From contig OY970192.1 in NCBI GenBank assembly GCA_963708135.1, positions 1,472,001 through 1,536,000 on the forward strand: a stretch of 64,000 bases of DNA, read 5' to 3'. The notes under the pieces are model-generated. The model saw nothing but the letters and a program-made list of their open reading frames with translations. It was not told where the DNA came from and did no database searches. The translations under genes were made by a program, and so were the position numbers. The number at the start of each line of letters is the position of its first letter. The stretch's first letter is position 1. The stretch comes from an uncultured Gemmatimonadales bacterium (GTDB lineage Bacteria; Gemmatimonadota; Gemmatimonadetes; Longimicrobiales; RSA9). Positions 18,498 through 50,241 of this stretch are shown here, piece by piece.

Positions 18498-19040
18498 ATG
18501 AAGCACTTGGCGTTTTTCAGCGCTGTCGTCGTGGTGCTCGCAGGGTGCAGCGGCGGCGCCCAGGAGCCGACGGCGGGCGAGGGCTACCGCGCCCTGGCGG
18601 CGGATCAGGTGATGGAGGGGGTCCATCACTACTTCACCGCGGATGGTGTGCGGCGCGGCGAGCTCACGGCCGACTCGGCCTACATGTACGACGACTCCGC
18701 GCGAGCGGATCTGCGCGGGGTCCACCTGAAGATGTTCGACACGCAGGGGCGGGAGACGGCCACGCTGACCTCGCGCTCCGGCGTCGTCAACAACCGTACG
18801 CAGGCCATGGTGGCGCGCGGGGGCGTCGTGCTGGTCACGACGGAGGGGAACAAGCGGATCGAAACCGAAGAGCTGCACTACGACCCGAACACGCACCGGA
18901 TCTGGAGCACGGTGGCGAGCACGCTCCAGCAGAACGGCACGCGCGTGACCGGGGACGGCTTCACCGCGGACGACCAGATGCACAACCTGCAGATGACGCA
19001 TCCGCGCGGGAAGGTCGAGGGCATGAAGGTGCAGTTCTGA
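18498..19040 (+). CDS. lptC: LPS export protein LptC with lipoprotein signal (alternative starts 18486/18489)
   Basis: Located between kdsD and lptA/lptB; beta-jellyroll-like sequence (LTADSAY, IETEELHYD, VTGDGFTAD); lipobox LAGC. Confidence 0.85.
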   Translation: MKHLAFFSAVVVVLAGCSGGAQEPTAGEGYRALAADQVMEGVHHYFTADGVRRGELTADSAYMYDDSARADLRGVHLKMFDTQGRETATLTSRSGVVNNRTQAMVARGGVVLVTTEGNKRIETEELHYDPNTHRIWSTVASTLQQNGTRVTGDGFTADDQMHNLQMTHPRGKVEGMKVQF

Positions 19041-20845
19041 TGCGTGCCTCGCTCACGGGCCTGGCGTTCCTCGCCGCCCTGCTCGGCGGCGCCTCCGGCG
19101 CGGCCGCGCAGCAGCAGTGCAACCTGACGTCCGGCGCCAACGCACGCCTCAACCAGGTGAACCCCGGTACGCCGCAGTCGATGATCTTCATCGGCGGCCT
19201 GGCGCAGTTCACCTGCCCGGACGGCAAGGTCATCCGGGGCGACAGCGCGGTGATCGTGGAGTCCACGCAGCAGCGGTTCCTGATCGGCCACGCGTATTAC
19301 TCCGACGCCGAGAAGACGCTGACGGGCGACCGCATGACCTTCTTCGGCCGGGAGGGCAGGCTGACGGCGGAGCAGAACGTGGTGGTCACGGACAAGACGA
19401 ACGGGTCGGTCATCCGCGGGCAGTTCCTGAACTACGCCCAGCCGGCGGCCGGCCAGCCCTCGCGGGCGATCGTCTACGGCAACCGGCCGCACGCCGTGCT
19501 GCACGGAAAGGGCTCGGCGCCGACGCGCGCCCCGGCGGCGGCAAGGGACAGCACGGGCGTGGCAAGGGACAGCACGGGCGCGGCAAGGGACAGCACGGGC
19601 GCGGCAAGGGACAGCACGGGCGCGGCAAGGGACAGCACGGGCGCGGCAAGGGACAGCACGGGCGCGGCAAGGGACAGCACGGCCGCCGCGGCGCGGGACT
19701 CCGCCGCGCGCCGTCCCGCGGCCCCGGATTCCGCCGCGCGTGGCCCGGCGGCCCCGCCGGACACGACGACGACGATCGTGGACGCGGACCAGATGCAGCT
19801 GATCGGGCAGCAGGACTTCCATGCCACGGGGAACGTCAAGCTGGTCCGGGGAGAGCTGAAGGGGGAGGGGCAGCAGATCGACTACTCGCAGGTCAACGGG
19901 CACATGAAGCTGATCGGCAACGCGCGCATGGAGGGCAGCAACTTCACGCTCGAGGCGGGCACGATCGACGGTACCATGAAGGACAACCAGCTCGAGTCCG
20001 TCCGCGCCGAGTCCCGGGGGAAGCTCGTGGCTGACGAGGTGCGCGTGAACGCGCCGGTCATCCAGGTGGCCTTCATCAAGGGCAAGGTGCAGCGGCTGAT
20101 CGCGCTGAGCGCCAAGAGGGCCGATCGTACGGCGACGGACGGGGATGCCCGGGCCGAGGCGCTCGCGCGCGACATGCGGCTGGTGGCGGACTCGATCGAC
20201 GCGCTACTCCCCGAGCAGCGGATGGAGCGGCTGGTGGCGGTGGGCGGCGCGTACGGCGAGCGCACGAACGATTCGATCAAGGCCAAGCTGCCGGAGGTCG
20301 CCTCACGCGACTGGCTGCGCGGCGACACGATCATCGGCGTCTTCGCGCGACCCGGCATGCCGCTGGCCGCGGCCGACTCCGCGCTGGTAGTGGTGGCCGC
20401 GGACACGGCGAGGACGGCCTCCGATTCCGCCGGCGTGGCGGCGGGTGACTCGGCTGGGGCCGCGCATGCCAAAGCGCAGAAGAAGGCCAAGGCCGCGACG
20501 AAGCCCGCGCCGGGAAAGGTGGCGGGGGGACCCGCGGCCGCCGATACCACCGCGGAGCTGCGGGCGGTCGTCGCCCTGGGCGGCTCGACGCCGGCGAGCT
20601 CGATCTACCGGATGCAGGACAGGAAGAAGCCGGACCAAGGCCCCGCCATCAACTACCTGCTGGCGAAACGGATCGCGCTCGCGTTCCGGGACGGCGATGT
20701 CACCGCCGTGCGGGCGCAGGGCGAGATCCGGGGCGTGCACCTGCAGCCGGAGGCGGTGCCGGCGGATAGCACGACGAGCGCGAAGAAGAAGGGCGCGACG
20801 GAGCCCGGCGGCGGAGCCGGCGGGACGCTCGGGGCGCGGCGATGA
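19040..20845 (+). CDS. Extended LptA/OstA-like periplasmic protein with an internal repeat linker
   Basis: Signal peptide AAA-Q; OstA-like strands (IRGDSA, LTAEQNVVV, ATGNVKL); lies between lptC and lptB; 601 aa. Confidence 0.75.
   Translation: MRASLTGLAFLAALLGGASGAAAQQQCNLTSGANARLNQVNPGTPQSMIFIGGLAQFTCPDGKVIRGDSAVIVESTQQRFLIGHAYYSDAEKTLTGDRMTFFGREGRLTAEQNVVVTDKTNGSVIRGQFLNYAQPAAGQPSRAIVYGNRPHAVLHGKGSAPTRAPAAARDSTGVARDSTGAARDSTGAARDSTGAARDSTGAARDSTGAARDSTAAAARDSAARRPAAPDSAARGPAAPPDTTTTIVDADQMQLIGQQDFHATGNVKLVRGELKGEGQQIDYSQVNGHMKLIGNARMEGSNFTLEAGTIDGTMKDNQLESVRAESRGKLVADEVRVNAPVIQVAFIKGKVQRLIALSAKRADRTATDGDARAEALARDMRLVADSIDALLPEQRMERLVAVGGAYGERTNDSIKAKLPEVASRDWLRGDTIIGVFARPGMPLAAADSALVVVAADTARTASDSAGVAAGDSAGAAHAKAQKKAKAATKPAPGKVAGGPAAADTTAELRAVVALGGSTPASSIYRMQDRKKPDQGPAINYLLAKRIALAFRDGDVTAVRAQGEIRGVHLQPEAVPADSTTSAKKKGATEPGGGAGGTLGARR
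19538..19684 (+). repeat. Coding tandem repeat, 7 x 21 bp (GCGGCAAGGGACAGCACGGGC), encoding (AARDSTG)n
   Basis: Seven consecutive near-identical units; copy 2 starts GTG and copy 7 ends GCC. Confidence 0.97.
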
Positions 20846-23531: not shown

Positions 23532-23558
23532 GCCTCCGGCCTCGGAGCAGGGATCTCG

Positions 23559-24545
23559 ATGGCGACGACACCGGTCGAGCAGATGACTGCTTCTCCGCCG
23601 CGCCTCACGGAAGAGGTGCGGCGGGGCTTTGCCGTGCTGGTGCCCGCCTACAACGAGGCGGACAACATGCGTGAGCTCGTGGCGGAGCTGCGGGCCACGT
23701 TCGAGCGTTGGCAGCTCGAGGGCGAGGTGGTGCTGGTGGACGACGGCTCCACGGACGGGACGGCCGAGGCGGCGAGGCGGGAGGCGGCGGGGTGGAGCGG
23801 CTTCAAGGTGGTTTCGCACCGACGCAACTTCGGCAAGACGGAGGCGCTGCTCACGGGCGCGGAGGCGACGGACGCCGGGGTGCTCGTCCTCTTCGACGCG
23901 GATCTGCAGCATGGGACGGAGGAGATCCCACGCTTTCTGGCGCGCGTGGCGGAGGGGTGGGACATCGTGACGGGACGGAAGGTCGGGCGCTACGAGAAGC
24001 GGGGCGTTTCCCGGGTGTACAACTGGCTGAACCGGCGCATCTTCGAGGTGCCGGTCTCGGACCTGAACTCGATGAAGGCGTTCCGGCGCGAGGTGCTGGA
24101 TGAGGTGCACCTGCGCCACGACTGGCACCGCTTCTTCGTGGTGCTGGCTTACGCGCGCGGCTTCAGCGTGACGGAGCTGGACATCGCGCTCCTGCCGCGT
24201 CGCCACGGCGTGGCAAAGTACTCCGCCCGGAGCCGGATCGTGGTGGGTCTGCTGGACCTGGTGTCGGTGGCGTTCTTCCTGTTCTTCTCGCGCAAGCCGA
24301 TGCTGTTCTTTGGCGTGAGCGGGCTCTTCACCGTGGGGCTCGGGCTGGTGGTCGGGGTGACGACGATCGTGCTCCGCGTGCTGCACACCATGCCGCCGTT
24401 CGGCTACCGCCCGCTCCTCTACCTCGTGGTTCTCCTCGAGACGCTCGGCTTCCTGCTCTTCGGCTTTGGCTTCGTGGCCGAGCAGAGCGCCCAGCAGCAG
24501 GCCGAACTGGACGCGCTGCGTACCCGCCTGCTCAAGCGGAAGTAG
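23559..24545 (+). CDS. GT2 glycosyltransferase, ArnC/GtrB-like (polyprenyl-phosphate sugar loader)
   Basis: VPAYNE, DDGSTD, RNFGK, DADLQ, two C-terminal TM helices. Confidence 0.9.
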   Translation: MATTPVEQMTASPPRLTEEVRRGFAVLVPAYNEADNMRELVAELRATFERWQLEGEVVLVDDGSTDGTAEAARREAAGWSGFKVVSHRRNFGKTEALLTGAEATDAGVLVLFDADLQHGTEEIPRFLARVAEGWDIVTGRKVGRYEKRGVSRVYNWLNRRIFEVPVSDLNSMKAFRREVLDEVHLRHDWHRFFVVLAYARGFSVTELDIALLPRRHGVAKYSARSRIVVGLLDLVSVAFFLFFSRKPMLFFGVSGLFTVGLGLVVGVTTIVLRVLHTMPPFGYRPLLYLVVLLETLGFLLFGFGFVAEQSAQQQAELDALRTRLLKRK

Positions 24546-24555
24546 CGCGAGCGCC

Positions 24556-25476
24556 ATGGCCAGCGAGCGACCGCTGTTCCCCGACGGCTACCCCCCGGCC
24601 GAGATCTTCGATCGGCTGGAGGAGGCGGCGCCGCTGCGGGAGATGCAGGGGTTCGCCGACCGCTTCCGCGAGGCGAATCCCGCGGCGCTGGCGCGCTACG
24701 CCCGCCAATGGGTGCCGGATCCGCTGCACCACTGGTCACGCCAATGGGAGTACCCGTACGTCTACGAGCGGCTGCGCGAGGAGCTCGGGGAGCGGTCCGC
24801 CGCGGCCGGCGGCGCGCGAATTCTCGACGCGGGGTCGGGCCTCACCTTTTTCCCGCATTTTCTGGCCGAGCGCCTCCCGCTCGCGCGGGTGGACTGCTGC
24901 GACCGGGATCCGCTCATCGAGGACGACGCCGCCCTGCTCCTGCCGCCGGCGAGCGCCGCCGTCGCCTACTCCACGCAGGACCTGTCGGCGCTCCGGTTCC
25001 CGGACGCGACCTTCGATGCCGTGTACTGCGTGTCCGTGCTGGAGCACAGCGACCGCAGGGAGGCGATCGCGGCGGAGTTCGCGCGCGTGCTGAAGCCGGG
25101 CGGACTGCTGGTGCTGACCATCGATGTGTCGCGGGATGGGCGTGCGGAGATCCCGCCGGAGGAGGCGGCCCGGCTGGTGGCGGAGGTCTCGGCGCGGTTC
25201 GACGCGGCGGGGGAGTACGGGGACGCGGTGCGGGGCGGGGAGCGGGGGGACGTGGCGACGACCGCGCACGCGTACGCGCTCGACCCCACGCTGCTGCCGT
25301 GGACCCCCGCCGGTGGGGAGGTGCTGCGGCGGCTGCTCCGGCCGTGGTCGTTCCCCTGGGTGCGGGCCATCCGGCGCGTGCTGCGCCGGAGCACCGGCGG
25401 GCCGGCGTACCCGGACCTCACGTTCTTCTGCATGGCGTGGCGGCGTGGCGGCGTGGCGGCGGAGGGCGGCGGGTGA
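24556..25476 (+). CDS. Class I SAM-dependent methyltransferase
   Basis: ILDAGSG, FDAVYCVSVLEH, RVLKPGG. Confidence 0.88.
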   Translation: MASERPLFPDGYPPAEIFDRLEEAAPLREMQGFADRFREANPAALARYARQWVPDPLHHWSRQWEYPYVYERLREELGERSAAAGGARILDAGSGLTFFPHFLAERLPLARVDCCDRDPLIEDDAALLLPPASAAVAYSTQDLSALRFPDATFDAVYCVSVLEHSDRREAIAAEFARVLKPGGLLVLTIDVSRDGRAEIPPEEAARLVAEVSARFDAAGEYGDAVRGGERGDVATTAHAYALDPTLLPWTPAGGEVLRRLLRPWSFPWVRAIRRVLRRSTGGPAYPDLTFFCMAWRRGGVAAEGGG

Positions 25477-26639
25477 GCCCGCGCGCGCTGGTGGTGGTCG
25501 GAACCCGGCCGGAGGGGATCAAGCTGGCGCCGGTGGTGCGGGGGCTGGAGGAGCGCGCGGCCGAGATCGAGACGCGGGTCGCGCTGACGGGGCAGCACAG
25601 CGAGCTGCTGGACCAGGTGCTGGACGTGTTCGGGGTCGCCGCGGCGTGGGACCTGGAGATCATGCGGGAGGGGCAGGACCTCTACGACGTGGCCCACCGC
25701 TGCCTGGACGGTCTCCGCGCAGTGGTGGCGGAATGGGCGCCGGACATCGTCCTCGTGCAGGGCGACACGGCGACGGTGTTCTTCGGGGCGCTCGTCGCCT
25801 TCTTCGAGAAGACGCGGGTGGGGCACGTGGAGGCGGGCCTGCGCAGCCGGGACAAGTGGCGGCCGTTCCCGGAGGAGATGCTCCGGCGCATGACGGGTGT
25901 GCTGGCGGACCTGCACTTCGCGCCGACCGCCGAGGCGCGCGAGAACCTGCTGGCGGAGGGCGTTCCGGGATCGTCGGTGTTCCTGACGGGCAACACCGTC
26001 GTGGACGCGCTCCAGGAGGTGGCCGGCGCGGCGGGAGCGCCCGTGGACGCGGAGCTCGGGCGCGCGCTCGAGGAGGGGGGCCGGGTGGTGCTGGTCACCG
26101 CGCACCGGCGCGAGTCGTTCGGCGCGCCGCTGCGGGAGGCGTTCGGCGCGATCCGGGAGGCGGCGGACCGCTTCCCGGACACGGTGTTCGTCTACCCCGT
26201 GCACCCGAATCCGGCCGTGCGCCGCGCGGCTTCCGAGGTGCTCTCCGGCCATCCGCGGATCCGTCTGACGGAGCCGCTCGCCTACAGGGACCTCGTGATC
26301 GCGCTGCGCAGCGCCGCGCTGGTGCTCACCGACTCGGGCGGGATCCAGGAGGAGGCGCCGAGCTTCGGCGTCCCGGTCCTCGTGCTGCGCGAGGTGACGG
26401 AGCGGCCCGAGGCGGTGCGCGCGGGGGCGGCCCGGCTGGTGGGCACGGATCGGGCGGCGATCCTCGCCGGGGTGGAGGCGGCGCTCGCGCCGGACGGCGC
26501 ATGGGCCCGTCAGCGGATCGTGAATCCCTACGGCGATGGCGCCGCCGGCCGGCGGATCGCGGACATCGTGGTGCACGCGCTGACGGGCGCGCCGCGGCGG
26601 ACGGAAGACTGGACGGGCCCGGAGGGTGCGCGGCCGTGA
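25473..26639 (+). CDS. wecB: UDP-N-acetylglucosamine 2-epimerase (non-hydrolysing)
   Basis: GTRPEGIK, TGQH, VQGDT, HVEAGLRS, TAHRRES, DSGGIQEEAP, NPYGDG. Confidence 0.95.
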   Translation: MSPRALVVVGTRPEGIKLAPVVRGLEERAAEIETRVALTGQHSELLDQVLDVFGVAAAWDLEIMREGQDLYDVAHRCLDGLRAVVAEWAPDIVLVQGDTATVFFGALVAFFEKTRVGHVEAGLRSRDKWRPFPEEMLRRMTGVLADLHFAPTAEARENLLAEGVPGSSVFLTGNTVVDALQEVAGAAGAPVDAELGRALEEGGRVVLVTAHRRESFGAPLREAFGAIREAADRFPDTVFVYPVHPNPAVRRAASEVLSGHPRIRLTEPLAYRDLVIALRSAALVLTDSGGIQEEAPSFGVPVLVLREVTERPEAVRAGAARLVGTDRAAILAGVEAALAPDGAWARQRIVNPYGDGAAGRRIADIVVHALTGAPRRTEDWTGPEGARP

Positions 26640-27757
26640 ACGTCCTGCAGCAGTGCATCTACTTCCCGCCGGAGGTAGGCGGCCTCGAGAGCCACGCCTA
26701 CTATCTGTGCCGGGAGCTCGTGCGACAGGGCGACGCGGTGACCATGCTGACGTCGCGCTCGATGCCGGGGACGCCCGCGGCGGAAGTGATGGACGGCGTG
26801 CGCGTGCGGCGGATGTGGTTCCCGGGGAAGAGCCCGGCGGGGTGGGTGCTGCACACGCTCTGGACGGTTCCGGCCTATCAGCGGCTGGCGGGGTGGGCGG
26901 ACGTGCTGCACGCGCAGACCTTCGCCTCCGCGGTGCCGGCACTCGTGGCCCGGCGACGACTCGGGAAGCCGGTGGTGCTGACGCTGCATACGTCGCATTT
27001 TCTCCGGCTGGCGAAGAGGCCGATGTGGCGGCCGGTCCTGGCGCGGATCATCCGCGGCGCGGATTGGCTCCTGGCGGCGAGCGAGGAAATCCGGGACGTG
27101 GCGCTGGACCTCTATCCGCATGCGCGGGCGGAAGCGCTGACGAACGGGGTGGATACGTCGGTGTTCCGGCCGGTCGAGCCGGCGTTGCGGCGGGAGGGTG
27201 GGCGGGCGCGGATCATCGTGCCGCGCCGGCTGTACCCGAAGAACGGCGTGGAGTCGCTGGTGCGGGCGGTGCCGCTGCTCGCGGCGCGACTGGACGTGGA
27301 GGCGGTGATCGTCGGGGACGGCCCGGAGCGAAGCCGGCTGGAAGCGCTCGCGCGCGAGCTGGGCGTGGAGGCGCGGATCCGCTTCCTGGGCGCGCGGCCG
27401 AACACGGAGCTGCCGGGGCTCCTCTGCTCGGGAGACGCGGCCGTGATCCCGTCGCTCATGGAGGCGACCAGCGTCGCGGCGCTCGAGGCAATGAGCTGCG
27501 AGCGGCCCGTGGCGGCATCGGCGGTGGGCGGGCTGCCCGAGATCGTGGATGAGGCGGTCGGGACGCTGTTCCGGCCGGCGGATCCGGCGGACCTGGCCGA
27601 GCGCGTGGCGGCGCTGCTCGCGGCGCCCGACCGGGCGGAGCGCGGGCGGGAGGCGCGGCGCCGGGTGGTGGAGCGCTGGAGCGTGGCGCGGCTGGCACGC
27701 CGGCACAGGGAGATCTACAGGACGCTGCTGGAGGAAAAGGCGGAGGCGCGGACGTGA
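26636..27757 (+). CDS. GT4 (GT-B) glycosyltransferase
   Basis: YFPPEVGG, TNGVD, VGDGPE, E-x7-E motif (EATSVAALEAM), VGGLPEIV. Confidence 0.92.
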   Translation: MNVLQQCIYFPPEVGGLESHAYYLCRELVRQGDAVTMLTSRSMPGTPAAEVMDGVRVRRMWFPGKSPAGWVLHTLWTVPAYQRLAGWADVLHAQTFASAVPALVARRRLGKPVVLTLHTSHFLRLAKRPMWRPVLARIIRGADWLLAASEEIRDVALDLYPHARAEALTNGVDTSVFRPVEPALRREGGRARIIVPRRLYPKNGVESLVRAVPLLAARLDVEAVIVGDGPERSRLEALARELGVEARIRFLGARPNTELPGLLCSGDAAVIPSLMEATSVAALEAMSCERPVAASAVGGLPEIVDEAVGTLFRPADPADLAERVAALLAAPDRAERGREARRRVVERWSVARLARRHREIYRTLLEEKAEART

Positions 27758-30228
27758 CGAGGAGGCCGAAACGTGGGGCGGGCGGGCGGAGCACGCCGGC
27801 GAGCGCGCGGGGCGCGGAGGCGGAGCGGCCGCTGCCGGCGTGGCTGCCGCTCGTGGTATACGCGCTGCTGGTGGTCGTGCTGTTCCGCGCGTTCGTCTTC
27901 TCGGACCAGATGCTGTTCGGGACGGACACGCTCGCGCTGGGCTACTTCGCGCGCGACTTCTACCGGAACTTCGTCCTCTCGCTGCACCACTTCCCGCTCT
28001 GGGATCCCTACCTGTTCGGCGGGCTTCCATTCGTGGACGGGATGCACGGCGACATCTTCTATCCCACGACCGTGCTGCTCTTCCTGATGAAGACATCGCG
28101 GGCGCTGGGGTGGCGGCTCATCGTGCACATCTTCCTGGCCGGGATCTTCACCTACGGCTGGTTGCGCCAGATCGGGGCGAGGCGGGCGGGGGCGTTCTTC
28201 GCCGGCCTGGTCTACATGCTGGGCGCGCACCTGGTCAGCCTGATCTACCCGGGCGGCGACGGCAAGATCTTCAACGCCACGCTCATGCCCCTGCTGTTCT
28301 GGCTCACGGAGCGCGCGGCGGCGCGCCGCCGCTACGCGGACTTCGTGTTCCTGGCGCTCGGCGTGTCGCTCATGATCTACACGTCGCACATGCAGGTGGC
28401 GTACTTCGCCATCTGGGGGTTCTCGCTCTACTTCATCTTCCGGCTCGGGCAGATGTGGCGCGCGCAGCGCAGCCCACGCTCCGCGGCGCGGCTGCTTGCG
28501 CTCTTCGCGCTCTCCGGGCTGGTGGGCGCGGCGGCGTCGGCGGTGCAGCTCGTGCCACCGTACGTGTACCTGAACAGGAGCTCGCACCGCGCGGAAAAGA
28601 CGGTCGAGGCCGGCGCGACGCGCGGCTACGAGTACTCGACCTCCTGGTCGCTGCATCCGGAGGAGGCCGTCTCTCTCGTGGTGCCGGAGTTCGCCGGGAC
28701 GAGCGTCTCTACGCCCTCCTCACCCGAGAACACCTACTGGGGCCGCAACGCGTTCAAGCTGAACGCCGAGTACGCCGGCTTCATCCCGCTGCTGCTGATC
28801 CCGTTCGTGTTCTTCCGGCGCCGGCGCAGGGGCCGCGCCTGGTTCTTCATCGGCCTCGGCGTGCTCGCGCTCCTCTACGCGCTCGGAGACACGACGCCGT
28901 TCTTCCATCTGTTCTACGCGCTGGTCCCGGGGGTGAAGCTGTTCCGCGCGCCCTCCACGATCATCCCGCTCTACGCGCTGATGGTGGCCACGCTGGGCGG
29001 CCTCGGCCTCGACGCGCTGCTCGAGCGGGGCGGGGAGGAGGCGGCCGGCCGGGAGGGGACGGGCGGAACGGGAAGCCGCTATCTCTGGATCGCCGCGGGC
29101 GTGCTCCTCGTTCTCGCGCTGCTGTCCTCGGGCGATACCCTCGCGAAGGTCTGGATCGCGGCGTTCTACCGCGACATTCCGCCCGACAAGCTGCAGGCGC
29201 TGGAGGCGAACCTCCCGTCGATGCGGGCGGGCTTCTGGATCACGTTCGTCCTCGCCGCGGCGGTGGCCGGGGTGTGGGAGGCGATGCGGCGCGGGATGCT
29301 CGGGCGGCGGGCGGCGTTCGGGGTGATCGCGGTGCTGGGGCTGCTCGACGTATGGCGGGTGGACCCGCAGTTCATCGAGGTGATGGACCCGCAGCCGGTG
29401 TTCGGAGCGGACGACGTCGTCGCGTTCCTGAAGCAGCAGCAGACGAAGGGCGAGGTCTTCCGGGTGCTCGATGCGGGCGCGTACAGCCAGACGCCGGACT
29501 ACCTGGCCGACTACGGCATCGAGCAGATGGCCGGGCACCACGGCAACGAGATGGCCCGCTACCGGGACCTGATCGGCGGCACCGAGCTGCGCAACGTCTC
29601 CGCCTCCGGGCTGCGGCTGCTCAACCTGCTGAACGTTGCCTACCTGGTCGCGCCGCAGGAGGCGCGGCTGCCGCCCGGCTATACGGAGGCGTACAAGGGA
29701 AGCCGCGGGGCGGTGGTGTACCGCAACGACAACGCGCTGCCGCGAGCGTTCCTGGTGGACGCGACGCGCGTGGTGCCGGACTCGCAGGCGGTGGCGCGGC
29801 TGATCTCGGCCGACTTCGACTTCCGACGGGTGGCGCTGCTGCCGGCGCCGCCGCCGGCGGAGGTCTCGCTGCCGGCCGGGGCCCCGGCCGGCGGGCTGGT
29901 CGGAACGACGCACTGGCGGGCCCACGGCGTGAACGAGCAGACGGTCGAGGTGAGCGCCACGCGGCCGGCGCTGCTCGTGGTCACGGACAACTGGTACGAT
30001 GCCTGGCGGGCGACGGTGGACGGCGCACCCGCGCCCGTGCTCCGCGCAGATTACAGCTTCCGAGGGATCCCGGTTCCCGCGGGCGCGCACGTCGTCACGC
30101 TGCGCTACGTCTCGCCGATGCTCGTCGATGCGGCGTGGGTCTCGGTGCTGGTGCTGGCGGTGCTGGCGGTGCTGGCCGTGTGGAGCTGGCTGCGGCCGAC
30201 CGGCTGGCTGGCGCGGGAGCGGCCGTGA
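27754..30228 (+). CDS. YfhO-like polytopic membrane glycosyltransferase (GT-C)
   Basis: PLWDPYLFGGLPF, FYP, many TM helices, FRAP motif, C-terminal ALPRAF...LLVVTDNWYDAWRATVDG...VPAGAHVVTLRY; 824 aa. Confidence 0.85.
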   Translation: MTRRPKRGAGGRSTPASARGAEAERPLPAWLPLVVYALLVVVLFRAFVFSDQMLFGTDTLALGYFARDFYRNFVLSLHHFPLWDPYLFGGLPFVDGMHGDIFYPTTVLLFLMKTSRALGWRLIVHIFLAGIFTYGWLRQIGARRAGAFFAGLVYMLGAHLVSLIYPGGDGKIFNATLMPLLFWLTERAAARRRYADFVFLALGVSLMIYTSHMQVAYFAIWGFSLYFIFRLGQMWRAQRSPRSAARLLALFALSGLVGAAASAVQLVPPYVYLNRSSHRAEKTVEAGATRGYEYSTSWSLHPEEAVSLVVPEFAGTSVSTPSSPENTYWGRNAFKLNAEYAGFIPLLLIPFVFFRRRRRGRAWFFIGLGVLALLYALGDTTPFFHLFYALVPGVKLFRAPSTIIPLYALMVATLGGLGLDALLERGGEEAAGREGTGGTGSRYLWIAAGVLLVLALLSSGDTLAKVWIAAFYRDIPPDKLQALEANLPSMRAGFWITFVLAAAVAGVWEAMRRGMLGRRAAFGVIAVLGLLDVWRVDPQFIEVMDPQPVFGADDVVAFLKQQQTKGEVFRVLDAGAYSQTPDYLADYGIEQMAGHHGNEMARYRDLIGGTELRNVSASGLRLLNLLNVAYLVAPQEARLPPGYTEAYKGSRGAVVYRNDNALPRAFLVDATRVVPDSQAVARLISADFDFRRVALLPAPPPAEVSLPAGAPAGGLVGTTHWRAHGVNEQTVEVSATRPALLVVTDNWYDAWRATVDGAPAPVLRADYSFRGIPVPAGAHVVTLRYVSPMLVDAAWVSVLVLAVLAVLAVWSWLRPTGWLARERP

Positions 30229-40932: not shown

Positions 40933-40997
40933 GGCCTTCCTTGCGGGGCGGAGCGGGACGCGCGGTCCCCGAGTGTGCGGGCGGGCGGCTGCCGGGC

Positions 40998-41079: not shown

Positions 41080-43278
41080 ATGGTGAGGATGCGTAAGGAA
41101 CGGACGGAGCGCGAGAACGGGATCGCGCCGCCGGGGCGTGCCCGGGGCGCGCGGCTTCTCGGTCCGCTCCTGCTGGGACTTCTGGCGGGCGGCTGCGTGA
41201 TGCAGGCGGGCGGCTCGGGTCCGTACGAGGCGCTGAAGAAGTTCGGCGGCAAGAACATCGACGCGGTCATCTTCCGGAACGCGGCGCCATTCGGCCGCGA
41301 CACGCTGCTCGCGCTGACGATGACGCTGCCGACGCGCTGCAACTTCCTCGGTCTTCCCATCTGCCTTCCGCTTCTTCATGTCGGCCAGGAGCGGCACACG
41401 TTCGATGCCACGGTGCTGCAGCAGGACGTGCAGCGGCTGGAGCTCTTCTACCGGGCGGCGGGCTACTTCGGCACGCAGGTCACGCCGAGCGTGGCCGCGC
41501 GCGGCAGCGACGGCGTGGCCGTGACGTTCACCGTGCTGCCGGGCGACCCGGTCCTGCTGGACACTCTCACGGTGACGGGGCTCTCCGGCATCGTGGATCC
41601 GGACTCGCTCGCGCGCCGCCTGCCGCTCCAGCCGGGTCAGCTGTTCGACGTGAACAAGTTCCTCGCGGCGGCGGACACGGTGCGGGGCGTGCTGCTCGCG
41701 CGCGGCCACGCCTACGCGCAGGTGCTGCGCAACTACGGCGTGGACACGGTCCGGAACCGGGCGACGGCGGAGATCGATGCCATTCCCGGCCCGCGCGTGC
41801 GGATCGACTCGATCCTGGTGATCGGGGCCCGGCACCTGGGCCGGACCGCCGTGCTTCGGCAGGTGACCGCGCGTCCGGGGGAGTACCTCCAGCTCCCGAA
41901 ACTGGTGGAAAGCCAGCGGAACCTCTACGGGCTCGACATCGTGCAGATCGCCACCGTGGGCATCGCGCCTGACTCCCTGCAGCAGGCGCCGCAGGATTCC
42001 TCCAGGGCGACGATCGCGGCGCGTATCGTGGAGGCGCCGGAGCACCAGGTGGAAGCGGCGCTGGGCTTCGGGTCGGTGGAATGCCTGCGCACGGAGGAGA
42101 GCTGGGTGGACCGCAGCCTCGGCGGCGGCGCGCGCAGGCTGGAGATCAATGGCTCGGTGAGCAAGATCGGGATCGGCACGGGTCTCGGCGGCAACCTGTG
42201 CTCCGCGTACGCCGGCGACCTCTACTCGAGCCGCCTCGACTACCAGTTGTCCACGCAGCTCACGCAGCCGTTTTTCCTGACCCCGACGAACCACCTTTCG
42301 CTCACCGTGTACGCGCAGCGGCAGTCGGCGCCGAAGGTCTACCAGCGCACGGCCCAGGGCGCCCGCACGGCCGTGGCGCACCGGCTTTCCACGCGCGAGG
42401 CGCTGACCTCGTCGATAAGCCTCGAGCGCTCGCATACCGATGCGACGCCAGTGGTCTACTGCATCGCGCTCCAGGCCTGCGAGCGCTCCCTGGTGGACTC
42501 GCTCTCGCAGGCGCGCTGGCGCAACATGCTCGGAACGGAGTGGCTCCGGGACCGCACCAACGCGCCGCTCAGCCCGACGGCCGGCTACGTCGCGCGGCTC
42601 TCGCTCGAGTGGTCCGCGCGCTGGCTCGGCTCGCGGGTGCGCTTCGTCCGGCTCACCGGCAACGTCAACTACTATCTCACGCTCAGCCCCGGCTACGTGC
42701 TGGCCGCCGACGCCCGCTTCGGGTCCTTCTTCCGCGGCGTGGGTCTCACCCCCGGGCAGAGCTTTCTGTCCCCCGAAGACCGCTTCTACACCGGCGGCGC
42801 GACGAGCGTGCGCGGCTTCGGCCAGCCCCTGCTCGGGCCGATCGCGTACGTCGCGGACACCATCCGGATCGGCGAGAACGACAAGGTCCTGGAGACCTAC
42901 GGGTTGCGCTCCGTCCCGACCGGCGGCACGGCGATGGGGGTGGCCAACCTGGAGCTTCGCACGCCGTCCCCCTTCCTGGCCGGCCGGGTGCGCTGGGCCT
43001 TCTTCGTGGACGGCGGCGCGGTCGGCTCGGACCCGCTGTGGAGCCTCGGCGCTCACGATTGGCGCTTCACTCCCGGGGCGGGTGTGCGGGTGAGCACCCC
43101 GGTGGGGCCGATCCGGCTCGACGTCGCCTACAACCCCTACCCGCCGACGAGCGGTCCGCTCTTCCTGATCACGCCGGCCGGGAACCAGCTCAGCCGCTTC
43201 TCGGACTCGTTCCGGCCGCCCACCGACTCGTTCTGGCGCCGGCTGCACTTCAACCTGGCCGTGGGCCAGCCGTTCTGA
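41080..43278 (+). CDS. Omp85 family (TamA/BamA-like) outer-membrane protein with POTRA domains (start uncertain, 41074-41089)
   Basis: DVQRLELFYRAAGYF POTRA motif, FYTGGATSVRGF, TPVGPIRLDVAY, C-terminal GQPF; possible lipobox AGGC. Confidence 0.88.
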   Translation: MVRMRKERTERENGIAPPGRARGARLLGPLLLGLLAGGCVMQAGGSGPYEALKKFGGKNIDAVIFRNAAPFGRDTLLALTMTLPTRCNFLGLPICLPLLHVGQERHTFDATVLQQDVQRLELFYRAAGYFGTQVTPSVAARGSDGVAVTFTVLPGDPVLLDTLTVTGLSGIVDPDSLARRLPLQPGQLFDVNKFLAAADTVRGVLLARGHAYAQVLRNYGVDTVRNRATAEIDAIPGPRVRIDSILVIGARHLGRTAVLRQVTARPGEYLQLPKLVESQRNLYGLDIVQIATVGIAPDSLQQAPQDSSRATIAARIVEAPEHQVEAALGFGSVECLRTEESWVDRSLGGGARRLEINGSVSKIGIGTGLGGNLCSAYAGDLYSSRLDYQLSTQLTQPFFLTPTNHLSLTVYAQRQSAPKVYQRTAQGARTAVAHRLSTREALTSSISLERSHTDATPVVYCIALQACERSLVDSLSQARWRNMLGTEWLRDRTNAPLSPTAGYVARLSLEWSARWLGSRVRFVRLTGNVNYYLTLSPGYVLAADARFGSFFRGVGLTPGQSFLSPEDRFYTGGATSVRGFGQPLLGPIAYVADTIRIGENDKVLETYGLRSVPTGGTAMGVANLELRTPSPFLAGRVRWAFFVDGGAVGSDPLWSLGAHDWRFTPGAGVRVSTPVGPIRLDVAYNPYPPTSGPLFLITPAGNQLSRFSDSFRPPTDSFWRRLHFNLAVGQPF

Positions 43279-46200
43279 TGGCGCGCGGCGACGCTCCCCA
43301 CCCGACCCGCCCCGGCGTGGTAGCGGCGCTCGCCGCCGCCCTGGCGCTGGCGGTGCTCGGGGGGTGGTGGTACTGGACGGGGGGCGGCCACGCACGCCGG
43401 CCGGCGGCCCCGGAGGCGAAGAACGGGGCGAACATCCGGCCCGTGGCGGTGGCCGAGATCAGCCGCTTCGACCGCCGCATCTACGACGAGTTGCACCGCA
43501 CGCGCCCGCGCACCACGCCGCTGCGTGGCGTGGCCAGGGTGACGGTCACGAACATCCGCTGGCGGGATGCGCGCGGGCGGCCGTTCCTGGACGCTGACGG
43601 CGTGACGGGCAAGCTGGACCTGGGCGCGCTCGCGCGCGGCGATTTCGTCGCCTCCCAGGTCGAGTCGCGCAACCCCGACGTGCTGCTCTACAAGCAGGCG
43701 GGCGACACGCTCTGGAACTACGAGCGCGTGCTCGCCGCGTTCCTGGTCGGCGGCGCCTCCTCCGGTCGCGGCGGGGGCCAGGCGCCCCGGACGGTGCTCG
43801 TGCGCGACCTGCGCATCGACGGCGGCAAGGCGCGCCTCGAGATGCCGGCCCGGACGCTCCGGTTCCTGGACGTGCAGGCGCAGCTTGCACGCGTGGCGCT
43901 ATCCGGGCCCGCCCTCCCCGCGCCGCAGGTGGAGCTCGCGCAGGGCACGGCCGTCTACGCCTCGGGCGACACCGTGCGCTTCCCGTTCTCCGTCGCCGGT
44001 GGCGTCTTCGAGTTCCCCACGGACAGCACGACGTTCCGGATCGCGACGGTGTCGTTCGGCCAGAGCCGGATCGAGGAGCTGCGCGGCTTCTACGATCCGA
44101 CTGCGCCGGGGCTGGGGGTCCGCGCCGCGGGGGTCGCGTCCCACCTGCGGCTCGCGGACCTGAGCGCGTTCCTGCCCGGGGCGAAGGGAGAGGAAGGCGT
44201 GGCATCGGGACGCTTCACGCTCGCGCCGACGGCCGCGGGTGGGCCGCGGCTCGGCATCGAGCATCTCGCGCTCGCCACCCAGGCCTCGAGGGCGACCGGC
44301 TCGCTCACGCTCGAGGTCGGAGCGGAAGGCACCCGGATCGAGTCCGCCGACCTGCGCCTGACCCCGCTGCAGCTCACCCTGGTAGAGCGGCTGACCGGCC
44401 GCACGCTTCCCTTCCACGGCACCGTCACGGGACGGCTGATGGGGACGGGCGGCGTGCTGCACTTCGAGGCGCTCGCGCAGCTCACCCGGCAGGGCAAGGG
44501 GCCGTACACCGTGAATCTCGAGGGCGAGCTCACGCAGCAGGCGCACGGCTTCGGGATTCAGGGGCTCACGCTGAACGTGAAGCAGCTCCCGCTCGAGGCG
44601 GTGCGCGCGCTCATGCCCGTCCCGCTACAGGGCAACATCAGCGGGAAGGTGACCCTCACGGGGGCGCCCGGCGCCGGCCCGATGCGAGTGGACGTCCGCC
44701 TGGATGTCGGCGGGGGCGTGGCCGTGGTGCAGGGCACCATCAACCCCGGGAAGGAGGCGCCGAGCTACGACCTCTCGGGCCGCCTCATCGATCTCCGGCT
44801 GCGCGACCTCCTCGCCCACGCGCCTCCCGCGGCGCTGACGGCGACGTTCTCGGCGTCGGGCCAGGGGCTCTCTCCGGCGACGGCGACGACGCACCTGCGC
44901 GTGGACGGCCGCTTCACCGGCTGGCGCACGACGCCAGGCGACCGCATTGCGGTGCACGCGGACCTCGAGCGGGGCACCCTCACGCTGGACACGCTGCTCG
45001 TCAACCTGGCCACGCTGCGCGTGGCGGCGGCGGGCCGCTGGACGGTCGAGGCACCGGGCGGCGGGGGGATCACCTATCGCGCTTCTCTCGCCTCGATGGC
45101 GCCGTTCGCGCCCTACGTGCCGGGACCGAACGGGGTGGCCGCGGCGGGTTCCTGGACCGTGGCCGGCACGCTCTCGGGGACACTCGCGCGCCCGGAGCTG
45201 GGCGGTACCCTGGCCGCGGACTCTCTGCGCTACGCGGACTGGGCTCTCCACCACGCCACGGGGAGCTACCGCCTCGGGCTGGGCGAGCCCGTCCCGGCGG
45301 TGGCTCTCGACGTGGTGGGGCAGACGTTCCACACGCCGACGCTGGGGGACTTCTCGACGCTTCGCCTCCAGGCGCAGCTCGCCCAGCCGCAACTCTCGAT
45401 GGCGCTGCGGGGGGAGCGGCCCGGCGGCGGCGCGGTGGAGCTCGTCGCCGACGGGCAGGTCCCGGCCAGCGGCCCGCGCATCCTCACGCTACGCACCTTC
45501 TCCGCCGACCTGGCCGGCAAGCAGTGGGCGCTCGAGCAGCCAGCCGTCGTAACGTGGACGCCTGGCGCCGCGCTCGACGTGCAGGGGCTCACGATCCAGC
45601 AGGCGGGAGGCGAGGGGCGGCTCGCGCTCTCCGGCCGACTGCTGCCGGCGGACGAGGCGCAGTTCACCCTGTCAACGACGGCGCTCCCGGTGGGCGACGC
45701 GTTCCAGCTGGCGGGCCGCGCGCCGCCCTTGACGGGCGACCTGTGGCTGACGGCGCAGGTCCAGGGACCGGGCGCGGCGCCGGCGCTGAAGGGGGAGTTC
45801 CAGCTGCGGCAGGGGAACATCGAGGGAGTCGCGCTGACCGCGCTGCACGGCACCATGAGCTACCGCGACCGCCGGCTCACCGCCTCGACGGAGGTGGACA
45901 TCGCCAATGGCGGCTCGATCCGCGCGGAGGCCGACCTGCCGGCCGAGCTCACGCTCGGGGCGCCGCCGAAGCTGTCGCTGCTGGGCACCGGCGCGGCGCA
46001 CGGGCGGCTGGTGGCGGACACGGTACCGCTGCGGATCGTCTCCTCGCTGGTCTCGCAGGTGAGAGACGTGGACGGCTATGTCAGCGCAAGCCTCGCCCTG
46101 GCCGGCACGGCGGAGAACCCGGAGCTCTCCGGGTCGGCGTCCCTGCTGGGCGGCGCGGTCACCATCCCGGCCGTGGACCAGCGCTACGACCAGATCACGG

Positions 46201-47429
46201 GCACGCTCGCGCTCCAGGACCGGCGCGTGGTCATCGAGGACCTGCGGGCGCACAGCGGCGGCTGGGCGGTAGCCACGGGGAACATCGTGCTCAAGGAGCT
46301 GAACAACCCGGTGGCCGACGTGAAGCTGAGCCTGGACGGCTTCCGTCCGATGAACGCGCCGAACCAGCAGGACGCGGCGGCGTGGGGCGAGCTGCACCTG
46401 ACGGGTGCCGTCCATTCGCCGACGCTCACCGGGGCCGTCCGGCTCGACGACGGCACCCTGGTCGTGCCCACCGGCGCGCAGGCGGGCAACCTGGCGGCGG
46501 CGGAGGCGGGCGCGCCGCCGCTCGCGGGCGCGCAGATCGCCTCGACACCGGCCACGCCGTTCGCGCAGGCGCTCACGGTGGAGGGACTCGGGGTCACGGC
46601 CGGCCAGGACCTGTGGTTCGCCACACCGCAGCAGGAGGCGCGGGTGCAGCTGTCGGGGACGCTCACCGTCTACAAGTCGGGGAGCGAGATCCGGGTATTC
46701 GGCGCCCTCACCGGGCAGCGCGGCACGTTTACGCTGTTCGCCGGGCCCATCATCCGGCGGCTGGACATCGTGCAGGCGCAGATCCGCTTCCTTGGCGGCA
46801 CGCAGCTGAACCCGCAGATCGACATCGTGGCGCAGAAGACGGTGCTCGACGCGCAGCAGCGGCAGGTCGGCATCCTGGCGCACATGACGGGCAGCCTGGA
46901 GTCGCCGCAGCTCGCGCTGTCCACGGCGGAAGGCGTGCAGATCCCGGAGTCGGAGCTGCTGAGCTTCCTGGTCTTCGGGCAGCCGAGCTTCGAGCTGGGC
47001 AACCAGCGGCTGATCCAGCAGACGGTGGTGGGCGGGGCGGCGCAGCTGCTGAGCCTGCAGCTCCAGCAGGCACTGGCGGCGCAGGGCGTGTTCGGGCTGG
47101 ACGTACTGGAGATCCGGCCGGGCCCGCAGGGGGCGCTCGGAGGGCTCGGCTCCTCACACGTGGTGGCGGGCGTGGAGGTCTACCGGAGCGTGTTCCTCAC
47201 GGTGGAGGGAGCCATCGGCGCCCTGTTCGGGTCGTCGGCGGAAACCGGCAGTGGTGGGATCTACGCCTGGCACCTGAACTGGCAGGCGAATCCGGGCACG
47301 TCGCTGCGTCTGGGGTGGGAACCCGTCAATCCGGCGTCGCTCCCCGGCATGTTCACCAACACGCTACCGGGCGCCCTGAGCGCGGTCCAGCAGGTTACCG
47401 TCGAGATCCGTCGCCGATGGACATACTGA
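43278..47429 (+). CDS. TamB/AsmA-like translocation and assembly protein
   Basis: N-terminal TM anchor, long beta-taco repeats, C-terminal NPQIDIVA...GSLESPQLALST...ELLSFLVFG; overlaps the Omp85 gene stop (TGATG). Confidence 0.85.
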   Translation: MARGDAPHPTRPGVVAALAAALALAVLGGWWYWTGGGHARRPAAPEAKNGANIRPVAVAEISRFDRRIYDELHRTRPRTTPLRGVARVTVTNIRWRDARGRPFLDADGVTGKLDLGALARGDFVASQVESRNPDVLLYKQAGDTLWNYERVLAAFLVGGASSGRGGGQAPRTVLVRDLRIDGGKARLEMPARTLRFLDVQAQLARVALSGPALPAPQVELAQGTAVYASGDTVRFPFSVAGGVFEFPTDSTTFRIATVSFGQSRIEELRGFYDPTAPGLGVRAAGVASHLRLADLSAFLPGAKGEEGVASGRFTLAPTAAGGPRLGIEHLALATQASRATGSLTLEVGAEGTRIESADLRLTPLQLTLVERLTGRTLPFHGTVTGRLMGTGGVLHFEALAQLTRQGKGPYTVNLEGELTQQAHGFGIQGLTLNVKQLPLEAVRALMPVPLQGNISGKVTLTGAPGAGPMRVDVRLDVGGGVAVVQGTINPGKEAPSYDLSGRLIDLRLRDLLAHAPPAALTATFSASGQGLSPATATTHLRVDGRFTGWRTTPGDRIAVHADLERGTLTLDTLLVNLATLRVAAAGRWTVEAPGGGGITYRASLASMAPFAPYVPGPNGVAAAGSWTVAGTLSGTLARPELGGTLAADSLRYADWALHHATGSYRLGLGEPVPAVALDVVGQTFHTPTLGDFSTLRLQAQLAQPQLSMALRGERPGGGAVELVADGQVPASGPRILTLRTFSADLAGKQWALEQPAVVTWTPGAALDVQGLTIQQAGGEGRLALSGRLLPADEAQFTLSTTALPVGDAFQLAGRAPPLTGDLWLTAQVQGPGAAPALKGEFQLRQGNIEGVALTALHGTMSYRDRRLTASTEVDIANGGSIRAEADLPAELTLGAPPKLSLLGTGAAHGRLVADTVPLRIVSSLVSQVRDVDGYVSASLALAGTAENPELSGSASLLGGAVTIPAVDQRYDQITGTLALQDRRVVIEDLRAHSGGWAVATGNIVLKELNNPVADVKLSLDGFRPMNAPNQQDAAAWGELHLTGAVHSPTLTGAVRLDDGTLVVPTGAQAGNLAAAEAGAPPLAGAQIASTPATPFAQALTVEGLGVTAGQDLWFATPQQEARVQLSGTLTVYKSGSEIRVFGALTGQRGTFTLFAGPIIRRLDIVQAQIRFLGGTQLNPQIDIVAQKTVLDAQQRQVGILAHMTGSLESPQLALSTAEGVQIPESELLSFLVFGQPSFELGNQRLIQQTVVGGAAQLLSLQLQQALAAQGVFGLDVLEIRPGPQGALGGLGSSHVVAGVEVYRSVFLTVEGAIGALFGSSAETGSGGIYAWHLNWQANPGTSLRLGWEPVNPASLPGMFTNTLPGALSAVQQVTVEIRRRWTY

Positions 47430-48442: not shown

Positions 48443-48462
48443 GATCGGAAGGCTGCCGCGAA

Positions 48463-50241
48463 ATGCTGCTCCACCTCCTTATTGCCCTGCAACTCCCGGC
48501 CACGGCGCCGCCGCAGGACTCCGCGCGGGCGTTGCGCCGGGAGGCGAAGCACGCGGAATCGCGCTACGAGCGGCTGACGCGGCGGCTGGCGCCGAGGACG
48601 CTTGGCGGCGGCTCACACGAGCCGTGCGATGAGGTGGTCGGCCGGTTCTGTCTGCGCTTCGATCCGGACGAGCGGAGCACACCGCTGCCGGCCGAGGCCC
48701 CGGCGGCGGTGGCGGCGCGGCTGGACGCGGTGCGGCGGCTCGAGCGGGCGGCCGAGGCGGCGCCCCGCAACGGCGCAATGGCGGGTGCGCTGGTGCGTCA
48801 CCTCGTCGAGATGGACAGCGCGGGCGCGGCGGTGGCGGCCGCGCGCAGGTTCGCCGCCGCGTCGCCGGACACCGCATGGGCGCCGCTCCTGCTCGGCTTC
48901 GCGCTCCACGCGGCGGGCCAGGACAGCGCGGCGGAGGCGTACTTCGACGGCGCGGCGGCGCGGCTTTCCGAGGAGGAGCGGCGGCGGCTCCGTCCCGACG
49001 TGCTGCTCCCCGGTGAGGAGCGGCACGCGCTCGGCCGGCTCGGTCCGGATGCCCGCCTCCGCTATGCCGCCGCCCTCTGGCGGCTGTCGGACCCGCTGTA
49101 CCTGACGCCGGGCAACGAGGTGCGGGCGGAGCATGTGGCACGCTACGTCTGGTGCCGGATCCTCGCGGACGTTCCCGTCGTCACCGACATGACCTCGTGG
49201 GGGTGGGACCTGGAAGAGCTGACCATGCGCTACGGCGTGCCGCGCGGACGCAGCCGCGAGGTCGGGTTCGGCGCGGAGCCCGACGCCCTCATCGAGCGCT
49301 ACGATCCGGCCGCGCTCGCCTTCGTCCCCGAGTCCCTGCTCTCGGTGGGAATCCGCGCGACGCCGCCGCCGGGCACGCCCTGGCCGCTCGAGGCGCGTGT
49401 CGCCCACACCGGCTACGCGCCCGCCACGTTCCGCCTGATGCTGCCGCTCGCCCCGCAGGTCTCCCGCTTCCCCGCCGGGGACTCCGTGCGCGTCCGCATC
49501 GACGCCACGCTGCCTCTCGACTCCCTGCCCCGCGGCGTGCGCCGCGTCCGCACGGCCCTCTTCGTACTGCCCGACGACAGCGCGCTGCTGCGCGGCGACA
49601 CGGCGCTGCGCGCCCATGTCGCGCGACTCGTCGAGACCGGCGACGACAGCGCACACGTCGCGCTGGAGGCCACGCTCCCACCAGGCCGCTATATCTACAG
49701 CATCGAGGCGCTCTCCGAGGACGGCCGACTGGCGCTCCGGGCGCGCCACAGCGTGCACCTCGAGACCGCCCCGCCGCCCGGCCGTCCAGCCGTGTCGGAT
49801 CCGCTCATCGCGGCGCCGCTCCCCGCCGGGGTCACGCCGGCCGGCCGGCAGGATCCCCGCCTGCGGCCGAGGGGCGGACTGGACCTCACCACCGGTGACA
49901 CGATCGGGATCTACGCCGAGGTCTCCGGCCTCGCCGCCGGCCGCGACGGCAGGCCGCGCTACGCCGTCGACCTCTGGCTCGAGCGGCTGGGGCATCCTTC
50001 GCTGCCGGGACGGGCGATCCGCTGGCTCGGCAGGCGCCTGGGCCTCGGCTCCGAGCACCGGCCGATCCGGCTCGGGTGGCAGGCGGAAGGCGACGACGCG
50101 GGCCGTGGCACCGTCGCCGTGAGCCTCCCGCTGCCGGCGATCCCCGCGGATCTCTACGCGCTGCACCTCGAGGTCACGGACCGGACGACGGGAGGACGCA
50201 CCGCGGTGTCTCGCGTGGTGCGGGTGCTGCGCCCGAGGTGA
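48463..50241 (+). CDS. Exported GWxTD-like domain protein with C-terminal Ig-like domains
   Basis: Signal peptide; WRLSDPLYLTPGNEVRAEH.AR...RYGVP resembles the GWxTD core; C-terminal beta-sandwich (YALHLEVTDRTTG). Confidence 0.7.
   Translation: MLLHLLIALQLPATAPPQDSARALRREAKHAESRYERLTRRLAPRTLGGGSHEPCDEVVGRFCLRFDPDERSTPLPAEAPAAVAARLDAVRRLERAAEAAPRNGAMAGALVRHLVEMDSAGAAVAAARRFAAASPDTAWAPLLLGFALHAAGQDSAAEAYFDGAAARLSEEERRRLRPDVLLPGEERHALGRLGPDARLRYAAALWRLSDPLYLTPGNEVRAEHVARYVWCRILADVPVVTDMTSWGWDLEELTMRYGVPRGRSREVGFGAEPDALIERYDPAALAFVPESLLSVGIRATPPPGTPWPLEARVAHTGYAPATFRLMLPLAPQVSRFPAGDSVRVRIDATLPLDSLPRGVRRVRTALFVLPDDSALLRGDTALRAHVARLVETGDDSAHVALEATLPPGRYIYSIEALSEDGRLALRARHSVHLETAPPPGRPAVSDPLIAAPLPAGVTPAGRQDPRLRPRGGLDLTTGDTIGIYAEVSGLAAGRDGRPRYAVDLWLERLGHPSLPGRAIRWLGRRLGLGSEHRPIRLGWQAEGDDAGRGTVAVSLPLPAIPADLYALHLEVTDRTTGGRTAVSRVVRVLRPR

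Follow-up and report, generated by a model that had tools for sequence, protein, structure and literature searches.

Enrichment of the Bacteroidota O-glycosylation sequon in exported proteins of a Gemmatimonadota bacterium, with two candidate GT-C glycosyltransferases

The general system for O-glycosylating proteins in Bacteroidota uses the acceptor sequon D-[ST]-[AILVMT] (PMC12871550; this and the other papers are cited for the parts of them available to us). The same tripeptide is described here in a 64,000-nucleotide stretch of bacterial DNA (G000:C1:1472001-1536000, hereafter the window; G000 is the source genome), where an earlier reading made from the letters alone (the sequence-only reading) had identified it as the Bacteroidota sequon, in agreement with that review. 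Its excess in exported proteins suggests that a Bacteroidota-type sugar-tagging system probably works in a second phylum, the Gemmatimonadota.

According to the same review, the Bacteroidota core glycan begins with mannose, Ser is common as the third sequon residue in glycoproteomes, and the model needs two enzymes, a transferase and a ligase, which are listed with the core flippase as undiscovered; the metG-wzx-glycosyltransferase locus (LFG) is not conserved across the phylum. The system is called unique to Bacteroidota there, a ratio calculated over all GTDB genera being enriched "mainly" in that phylum with Fibrobacterota also named, and a look at Fibrobacterota is suggested; Gemmatimonadota are unnamed in its text and may show in its Fig. 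2A. In P. gingivalis the richest sequon carriers include LptD, TamA and TamB, the periplasm is the main site, and abundant surface proteins avoid the motif (PMC8729774). YfhO has already been proposed as the transferase and is reported absent from P. gingivalis (bioRxiv 10.64898/2026.07.27.740950). Streptococcal YfhO-family proteins PgtC2 and PgfM1 O-glycosylate proteins, the GtrB/PgtC2 and PgfS/PgfM1 systems modifying Ser/Thr in extracytoplasmic disordered regions (PMC12041528), and human TMEM260 is a protein O-mannosyltransferase specific for IPT domains (PMC10214176). No published report of this sequon signal in Gemmatimonadota, and no bacterial role or activity of DUF2723/TMEM260, was found in the literature searched.

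Selection on the sequon in extracytoplasmic sequence

In the sampled families with enough data, selection for D-[ST]-[AILVT] acts on the protein and only in extracytoplasmic sequence. The sequence-only reading had supposed selection in exported proteins alone, which was borne out by an enrichment limited to extracytoplasmic sequence and lacking in diderm outgroups. Genes were predicted using a purpose-written gene caller (4337 genes in the source genome, a single contig of 5.45 Mb, 72% GC and 97.65% complete). The genome-wide, composition-corrected check that the sequence-only reading had proposed was run on the 3954 proteins of at least 100 residues with a score of at least 25, which were sorted by our own signal-peptide and transmembrane heuristics, rather than SignalP, into an exported class (623), a cytoplasmic class (1614) and a class of membrane or ambiguous proteins (1717). 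The sequon occurred 1393 times in the exported class against 756 expected from composition (ratio 1.84, bootstrap 1.71-1.99), 1160 times against 1112 in the cytoplasmic class (1.04, 0.98-1.11), and 1882 times against 1529 in the membrane class (1.23). The contrast between the first two is conservative because several exported proteins were sorted into the membrane class, among them the window's PQQ dehydrogenase, its TPR protein and those starting at 48463 and 11881.

When exported and cytoplasmic proteins were contrasted without reference to any motif, DSA, ADS, DSL and DST were the top four of 5718 tripeptides. Observed/expected (O/E) ratios in the exported class were 2.2-2.7 for DSA, DSI, DSL, DST and DSV and 1.3-1.6 for the Thr forms (DS 2.27 vs DT 1.46), and were low for DSE (0.36), DSG (0.60) and DTG (0.51). 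Control motifs were flat, at 0.87 for E-[ST]-x, 0.98 for the sequon read in reverse and 0.90 for [ST]-D-x; D-x-[ST] stood at 1.14, and the N-x-S/T sequon of Campylobacter/eukaryote type was not enriched (732/768). Within 355 polytopic proteins whose positive-inside bias was clear, periplasmic loops held 199 sequons against 144 expected (1.38; Ser form 1.75) and cytoplasmic loops 82 against 96 (0.85). Single-anchor proteins split by orientation showed little contrast (1.29 vs 1.39); for outer-membrane proteins, only 25 genome-wide, the ratio was 1.28 in the barrel vs 1.47 in the N-terminal part.

The sequon carriers of the window are listed below, with the counts expected from composition. Every hand count of the sequence-only reading was reproduced by the independent gene calls.

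11881..13419, + strand: exported, probably outer-membrane protein (4 sequons, 1.4 expected), outside the span 18498..50241 covered by the sequence-only reading
18498..19040, + strand: LptC-like lipoprotein (2 sequons; Pfam LptC)
19040..20845, + strand: LptA-like periplasmic protein of 601 residues with Ala/Pro-rich linkers (20 sequons, 2.3 expected; Pfam LptA)
19538..19686, + strand: 21-nt tandem array in the LptA-like gene (7.1 copies, one sequon per unit)
37923..38624, - strand: membrane-anchored TPR protein (3 sequons, 0.5 expected; Pfam TPR)
38785..40935, - strand: PQQ dehydrogenase (7 sequons, 2.4 expected; Pfam PQQ), probably a lipoprotein with its start near 40935
41089..43278, + strand: Omp85/TamA-like lipoprotein of 729 residues (9 sequons, 1.8 expected; Pfam Omp85/POTRA)
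43278..47429, + strand: TamB (6 sequons, 3.4 expected; Pfam TamB)
48463..50241, + strand: exported protein of 592 residues without a Pfam match (10 sequons, 1.4 expected)

The LptA-like protein had the biggest sequon excess of all exported proteins in the genome, 7 of its 20 sequons coming from the single 21-nt array, which lies in a linker and would form a dense acceptor array. The clustering in Pro/Ala-rich linkers reported by the sequence-only reading held for this protein, with that share owed to the array, and for the PQQ protein in the sense that four of seven sequons lay in the Pro/Ala-rich C-terminal tail. Seven of the nine sequons of the Omp85/TamA-like protein were in its POTRA part. 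The protein at 48463..50241 had been labelled "GWxTD-like", for which the Pfam search gave no match. Among the cytoplasmic proteins of the window, PyrG had no sequon, RpoN, GH15 and LigD one each, and the FAD oxidase two; the adjacent Ku-like and LigD genes at 34414-37910 are presumably a non-homologous end joining pair. The named closest homologues of two window proteins were all from Longimicrobiales or Gemmatimonadota, as expected from the Gemmatimonadota-like host that had been suggested from the letters.

Conservation was followed in homologues of two carriers. In 120 TamA-like homologues, whose rows are related so that their counts and odds ratios are not independent, sequons were enriched 6.0-fold in the POTRA part and 2.2-fold in the barrel. 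Two sequons were kept in 120/120 homologues and two more in 112/119 and 115/120, with exchange of Ser/Thr and of Ile/Leu/Val between homologues; in variable columns D was coupled to S/T with an odds ratio of 3.96 (control pairs 0.47, 0.78 and 1.01). All 72 LptA-like homologues carried 6-26 sequons (median 13), in many cases arranged in arrays whose spacers are unrelated; the search was seeded on words of the sequon-rich query and may favour sequon-rich proteins. The orthologue in the Gemmatimonadota genome G054 (L261:15491-17389), fetched by its position beside the YfhO gene, had >25 sequons. It was also seen to have its own sequon expansions, with spacers different from those of the source genome. 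With about 13 sequons each, LptA-like proteins would be sensitive reporters.

Other genomes were compared as 40-460 kb samples using the same pipeline. Exported proteins of Gemmatimonadota gave 60/31 (observed/expected; G063), 30/19 (G138), 51/29 (G054) and, in a pool of three genomes from another class, 89/37; all other Gemmatimonadota together gave 237/124 = 1.91 (1.67-2.17), with 1.05 in cytoplasmic proteins. The diderm outgroups together gave 152/187 = 0.81 (0.69-0.95), made up of Woeseiaceae (71/88), Hyalangium (53/69), a delta proteobacterium (18/22) and four small loci (10/7). The signal is therefore lineage-specific and no general trait of exported proteins; samples spanning 58-72% GC agreed. 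A 17-base window stretch intended for random genome sampling matched mostly Actinomycetota, of which 30 loci were used; their excess (83/60) was gone (34/33) once 49 proteins had been collapsed to 26, because it came from one repeated lipoprotein.

The YfhO locus and two GT-C families

A run of glycan genes at 23616-32889, absent from the sequence-only reading, directly follows lptC-lptA-lptB-rpoN and is itself followed by acyltransferase-like genes.

23616..24545, + strand: GT2 glycosyltransferase resembling ArnC/PgfS at a sub-cut-off score and sharing 56% identity with a gene of G002's YfhO locus; candidate polyprenyl-phosphate sugar synthase
24556..25476, + strand: S-adenosylmethionine (SAM) methyltransferase (Pfam)
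25473..26639, + strand: UDP-GlcNAc 2-epimerase (Pfam)
26636..27757, + strand: GT4 glycosyltransferase (Pfam)
27754..30228, + strand: YfhO-family GT-C membrane glycosyltransferase (PF09586, 32.1 bits, cut-off 28.5)
30228..30944, + strand: SAM methyltransferase (Pfam)
30941..32155, + strand: LPG_synthase_TM family membrane protein (Pfam), directly 3' of YfhO in G054, G002 and G020
32152..32889, + strand: short GT2 sharing 61% identity with its syntenic counterpart in G002 (another class); candidate, inferred polyprenyl-phosphate hexose synthase

The gene at 27754..30228 was the sole YfhO match in the source genome, and its product is a candidate transferase or ligase. Its first external loop contains Asp58, whose codon is at 27925. 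Using Foldseek, the predicted structure (pLDDT, the predicted local distance difference test score, 87) was matched to the GT-C proteins AftD, AglB, STT3, ArnT, PglB and Pmt (best E 3e-8), with AglB, STT3, PglB and AftD ranking highest; a sequence search of solved structures gave no match for this protein, and no plasmid match was found. The window's GT2 and YfhO proteins gave weak, sub-cut-off matches to the PgfS and PgfM1 models. The order YfhO, LPG_synthase_TM, GT2 was present in 3/3 other Gemmatimonadota loci examined, from two classes, and not in the Cyclobacteriaceae locus. Upstream of the run, the LptB-like open reading frame (ORF; 20842-22071) encodes 409 residues, of which about 170 precede the ABC domain (Pfam 175-321); the syntenic gene in G054 encodes 241 residues, and the N-terminal part of the window ORF is either genuine or lies before an internal start.

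Two genes of a second GT-C family, TMEM260-like (PF11028), were found elsewhere in the source genome (129 and 119 bits).

G000:C1:4687038-4689296: TMEM260-like GT-C (PF11028 over cut-off, conserved Asp)
G000:C1 2978422-2980953: second TMEM260-like gene (L003), with an N-terminal extension; the small gene before it is presumably PadR-like

YfhO-like and TMEM260-like proteins are core genes common to Gemmatimonadota and Bacteroidota. A profile of 44 YfhO homologues matched 151/151 Gemmatimonadota and 60/61 Bacteroidota genomes, and the TMEM260-like family was found in 150/151 and 61/61, respectively, and in 1/14 control genomes, namely B. thetaiotaomicron. Of the rows in the YfhO tree, 9 were from Gemmatimonadota, 30 from Bacteroidota and 4 from outgroups. 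For Bacteroidota they were 29 of the 30 best-scoring loci and G151, a choice biased towards closeness. Dropped from the tree were two ORFs of Chloroflexota, one of Bacteroidota, and a paralogue of less than 700 residues. Gemmatimonadota and Bacteroidota formed one clade (support 0.98), and Asp58 was present in all 39 of their rows and in Hyalangium. In the TMEM260-like tree (22 rows, 10 of 12 sampled loci used) the main Gemmatimonadota and Bacteroidota copies formed a clade (support 0.94), one secondary copy per phylum grouped with the outgroups, and the conserved Asp was present in 22/22 aligned rows. In the Chloroflexota genome G152 (Ardenticatenaceae; L149-L156, L145-L148), 16 YfhO-like stretches and six TMEM260-like matches were observed.

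A third GT-C family, PMT-like, was rejected as the shared transferase, being patchy (41/61 Gemmatimonadota, many of them weak, and 10/61 Bacteroidota); its gene lies beside YfhO in G054, G002 and G020 and elsewhere in the source genome. Comparison of the three families, two core in both phyla and one patchy, thus serves as a filter for candidates, and leaves YfhO-like and TMEM260-like as two named candidate genes for the system's transferase. About six PMT_2-like GT-C genes were observed beside two type IV pilin-like genes at G000:C1 2680000-2695000, possibly a pilin glycosylation locus.

Proposed pathway and rival explanations

The best explanation, in which we place considerable confidence, is periplasmic protein O-glycosylation of the Bacteroidota type, and the Gemmatimonadota system likely works as that of Bacteroidota does. 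The claim of the sequence-only reading that envelope proteins are glycosylated was upheld for the sequence signal; the attachment of glycan itself is what we infer from it. In the proposed pathway, GT2 enzymes would load sugar onto undecaprenyl phosphate, and the lipid-linked sugar would be turned to the periplasm by a flippase, for which the LPG_synthase_TM protein at 30941 is a possible candidate. One GT-C enzyme would recognise Asp-Ser/Thr-small hydrophobic on exported chains and transfer the first sugar or core to Ser/Thr, and a second would extend the core or ligate an outer glycan made by the window's GT4, epimerase and methyltransferase genes. In linkers like those of the LptA-like proteins the sequon has multiplied, which would give dense glycan brushes.

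The initiating enzyme could well be the TMEM260-like protein, at a little under an even chance, because human TMEM260 O-mannosylates proteins and mannose is the first sugar of the Bacteroidota core, and because of the absence of YfhO from P. gingivalis reported in the preprint. The YfhO-like protein follows as a tentative choice, because the same preprint predicts it, streptococcal YfhO proteins glycosylate proteins, and the Pfam YfhO model misses members; some other protein is quite unlikely. A broader scenario is put forward tentatively: a D-[ST]-x system older than the Gemmatimonadota/Bacteroidota split, with a TMEM260-like initiating protein O-mannosyltransferase and YfhO as extender or outer-glycan ligase (or the reverse), and, evolved in Gemmatimonadota, mucin-like arrays of 6-26 sequons in the LptA-like protein of the LPS bridge, forming a periplasmic glycan brush. 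A clean signal in a phylum abundant in the environment would move the system's origin deeper.

Several points weigh against glycosylation of this type. The case is built from sequence and the glycan is putative, and both GT-C enzymes could serve lipopolysaccharide (LPS) or other envelope glycans. The positive control was weak: two Bacteroidota genome samples gave 93/75 = 1.24 (1.00-1.52; Cyclobacteriaceae 60/49, G181 33/26) with 0.82 in cytoplasmic proteins, which leaves the test without full-strength calibration on a known system; avoidance of the motif by abundant surface proteins, as in P. gingivalis, would dilute the Bacteroidota signal and explain this only partly. The Gemmatimonadota sample G012 gave 7/9 = 0.80 on only 40 kb, too small to judge. 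Third-position Ser was not enriched in the source genome (DSS 0.89, DTS 0.76), and cytoplasmic D-[ST] slightly favoured a hydrophobic third residue (0.49 vs 0.41). Both GT-C trees were midpoint-rooted with few outgroups. Hyalangium and G154 carry a YfhO-like and a TMEM260-like gene, respectively, outside the shared clades and have no enrichment (O/E 0.76 and 0.81), so that family presence alone is insufficient. No multi-pass flippase was found among the called genes adjoining metG (G000:C1:90313-91830), hence no metG-wzx locus. With regard to an inner glycan of Man-Rha-GlcA type, no RmlC (PF00908) match was found in the 97.65% complete genome; PF01050 gave one short match only, and also misses B. 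thetaiotaomicron. The glycan probably differs from that of Bacteroidota, as the lack of a metG-wzx locus and of an RmlC match suggests.

An artefact of composition or repeats, with GC-rich tandem expansions and Ala/Pro linkers raising the counts, can hardly account for the excess. The array in the LptA-like gene is of that kind, and sequon clusters were present in 42/623 exported proteins, but the enrichment was still 1.72-1.81 when residues were shuffled locally in stretches of 10-50, and 1.48 and 1.26 remained without the top 50 and top 100 contributors. At least one sequon was found in 444/623 exported proteins against 364 by chance, an expectation that makes the presence of the motif in about half of the non-cytoplasmic proteins or more, as in the Bacteroidota system, a weak test; samples of differing GC were concordant, and both Ser codon families were used alike (TCN vs AGY, 526 vs 294), so the sequon is not a DNA motif. 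It is very improbable that exported proteins prefer the tripeptide for structural reasons (as a helix N-cap, a turn or the start of a strand) and not as a modification signal. The mild cytoplasmic bias just given, flanking Ala at -3 and +4/+5, which fits short helices, and the invariance of some POTRA sequons speak for such a preference; against these stand the absence of an excess in exported Woeseiaceae, Hyalangium (67% GC) and delta proteobacterium proteins, the loss of the Actinomycetota excess on removal of repeated orthologues, an [ST]xxE capping box equal in exported and cytoplasmic classes (1.07 and 1.06), and the accumulation of sequons in low-complexity linkers with unrelated spacers.

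That the motif serves another periplasmic modification or interaction (transfer of phosphoglycerol or another group, or a chaperone or protease signal) is improbable. Sugar is here deduced from sequence, and the spectrum is slightly unlike that of Bacteroidota, with Ala strongest and no third-position Ser in the source genome; the preferences for D over E, for S over T and for A/I/L/V/T are nevertheless the rules of the documented glycosylation sequon (PMC12871550), and two GT-C clades are common to both phyla. Somewhat unlikely, and the strongest of the four rivals, is that glycosylation is real but proceeds without the window's YfhO locus, which would instead act in making LPS or some other envelope glycan. 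The locus sits between lptC-lptA-lptB-rpoN and the acyltransferase-like genes, YfhO of B. subtilis has lipoteichoic acid as its glycosylation target (PMC5836110), P. gingivalis glycosylates the sequon though YfhO is reported absent (bioRxiv 10.64898/2026.07.27.740950; PMC8729774), and G181, without a YfhO match, still gave 1.28 (0.88-1.80) on only about 120 kb. Involvement of YfhO is favoured by its being core to both phyla in one clade, and by streptococcal YfhO proteins that modify proteins (PMC12041528); PF09586 missed G194, which the homologue profile matched, and reported absences may therefore be misses.

Comparison with known systems

Human TMEM260 (PMC10214176) shares with the source genome's two copies the PF11028 family and an acidic residue that follows helix 1. 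B. subtilis CsbB/YfhO (PMC5836110) likewise pairs a YfhO-family protein with a partner glycosyltransferase, CsbB; its acceptor is a wall polymer and not protein. The streptococcal GtrB/PgtC2 and PgfS/PgfM1 systems (PMC12041528) resemble the window locus in combining a YfhO-family GT-C with a GT-A polyprenyl-phosphate sugar synthase, a likeness seen in weak profile matches. They differ in their monoderm hosts and Ser/Thr-rich acceptors, the available part of that paper mentioning no D-[ST]-x sequon.

The Bacteroidota system is the closest. Common to both are D-[ST]-[AILVMT] with Ser preferred and limited to non-cytoplasmic sequence, D and not E at the first position, a hydrophobic residue or Thr at the third with Gly and charged residues unenriched, periplasmic domains of LptD/TamA/TamB type as rich carriers, as in P. 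gingivalis (PMC8729774), and the shared YfhO-like and TMEM260-like clades. The differences lie in the phylum and in the stronger signal of the Gemmatimonadota samples (1.8-1.9 vs 1.2); in the source genome, with Ala as the commonest third residue, Ser unenriched there, dense sequon arrays in linkers, no metG-wzx locus and no RmlC match; in YfhO, which lies in a glycosyltransferase cluster here and not in the one Cyclobacteriaceae locus examined; and in the glycan, shown there by experiment and putative here.

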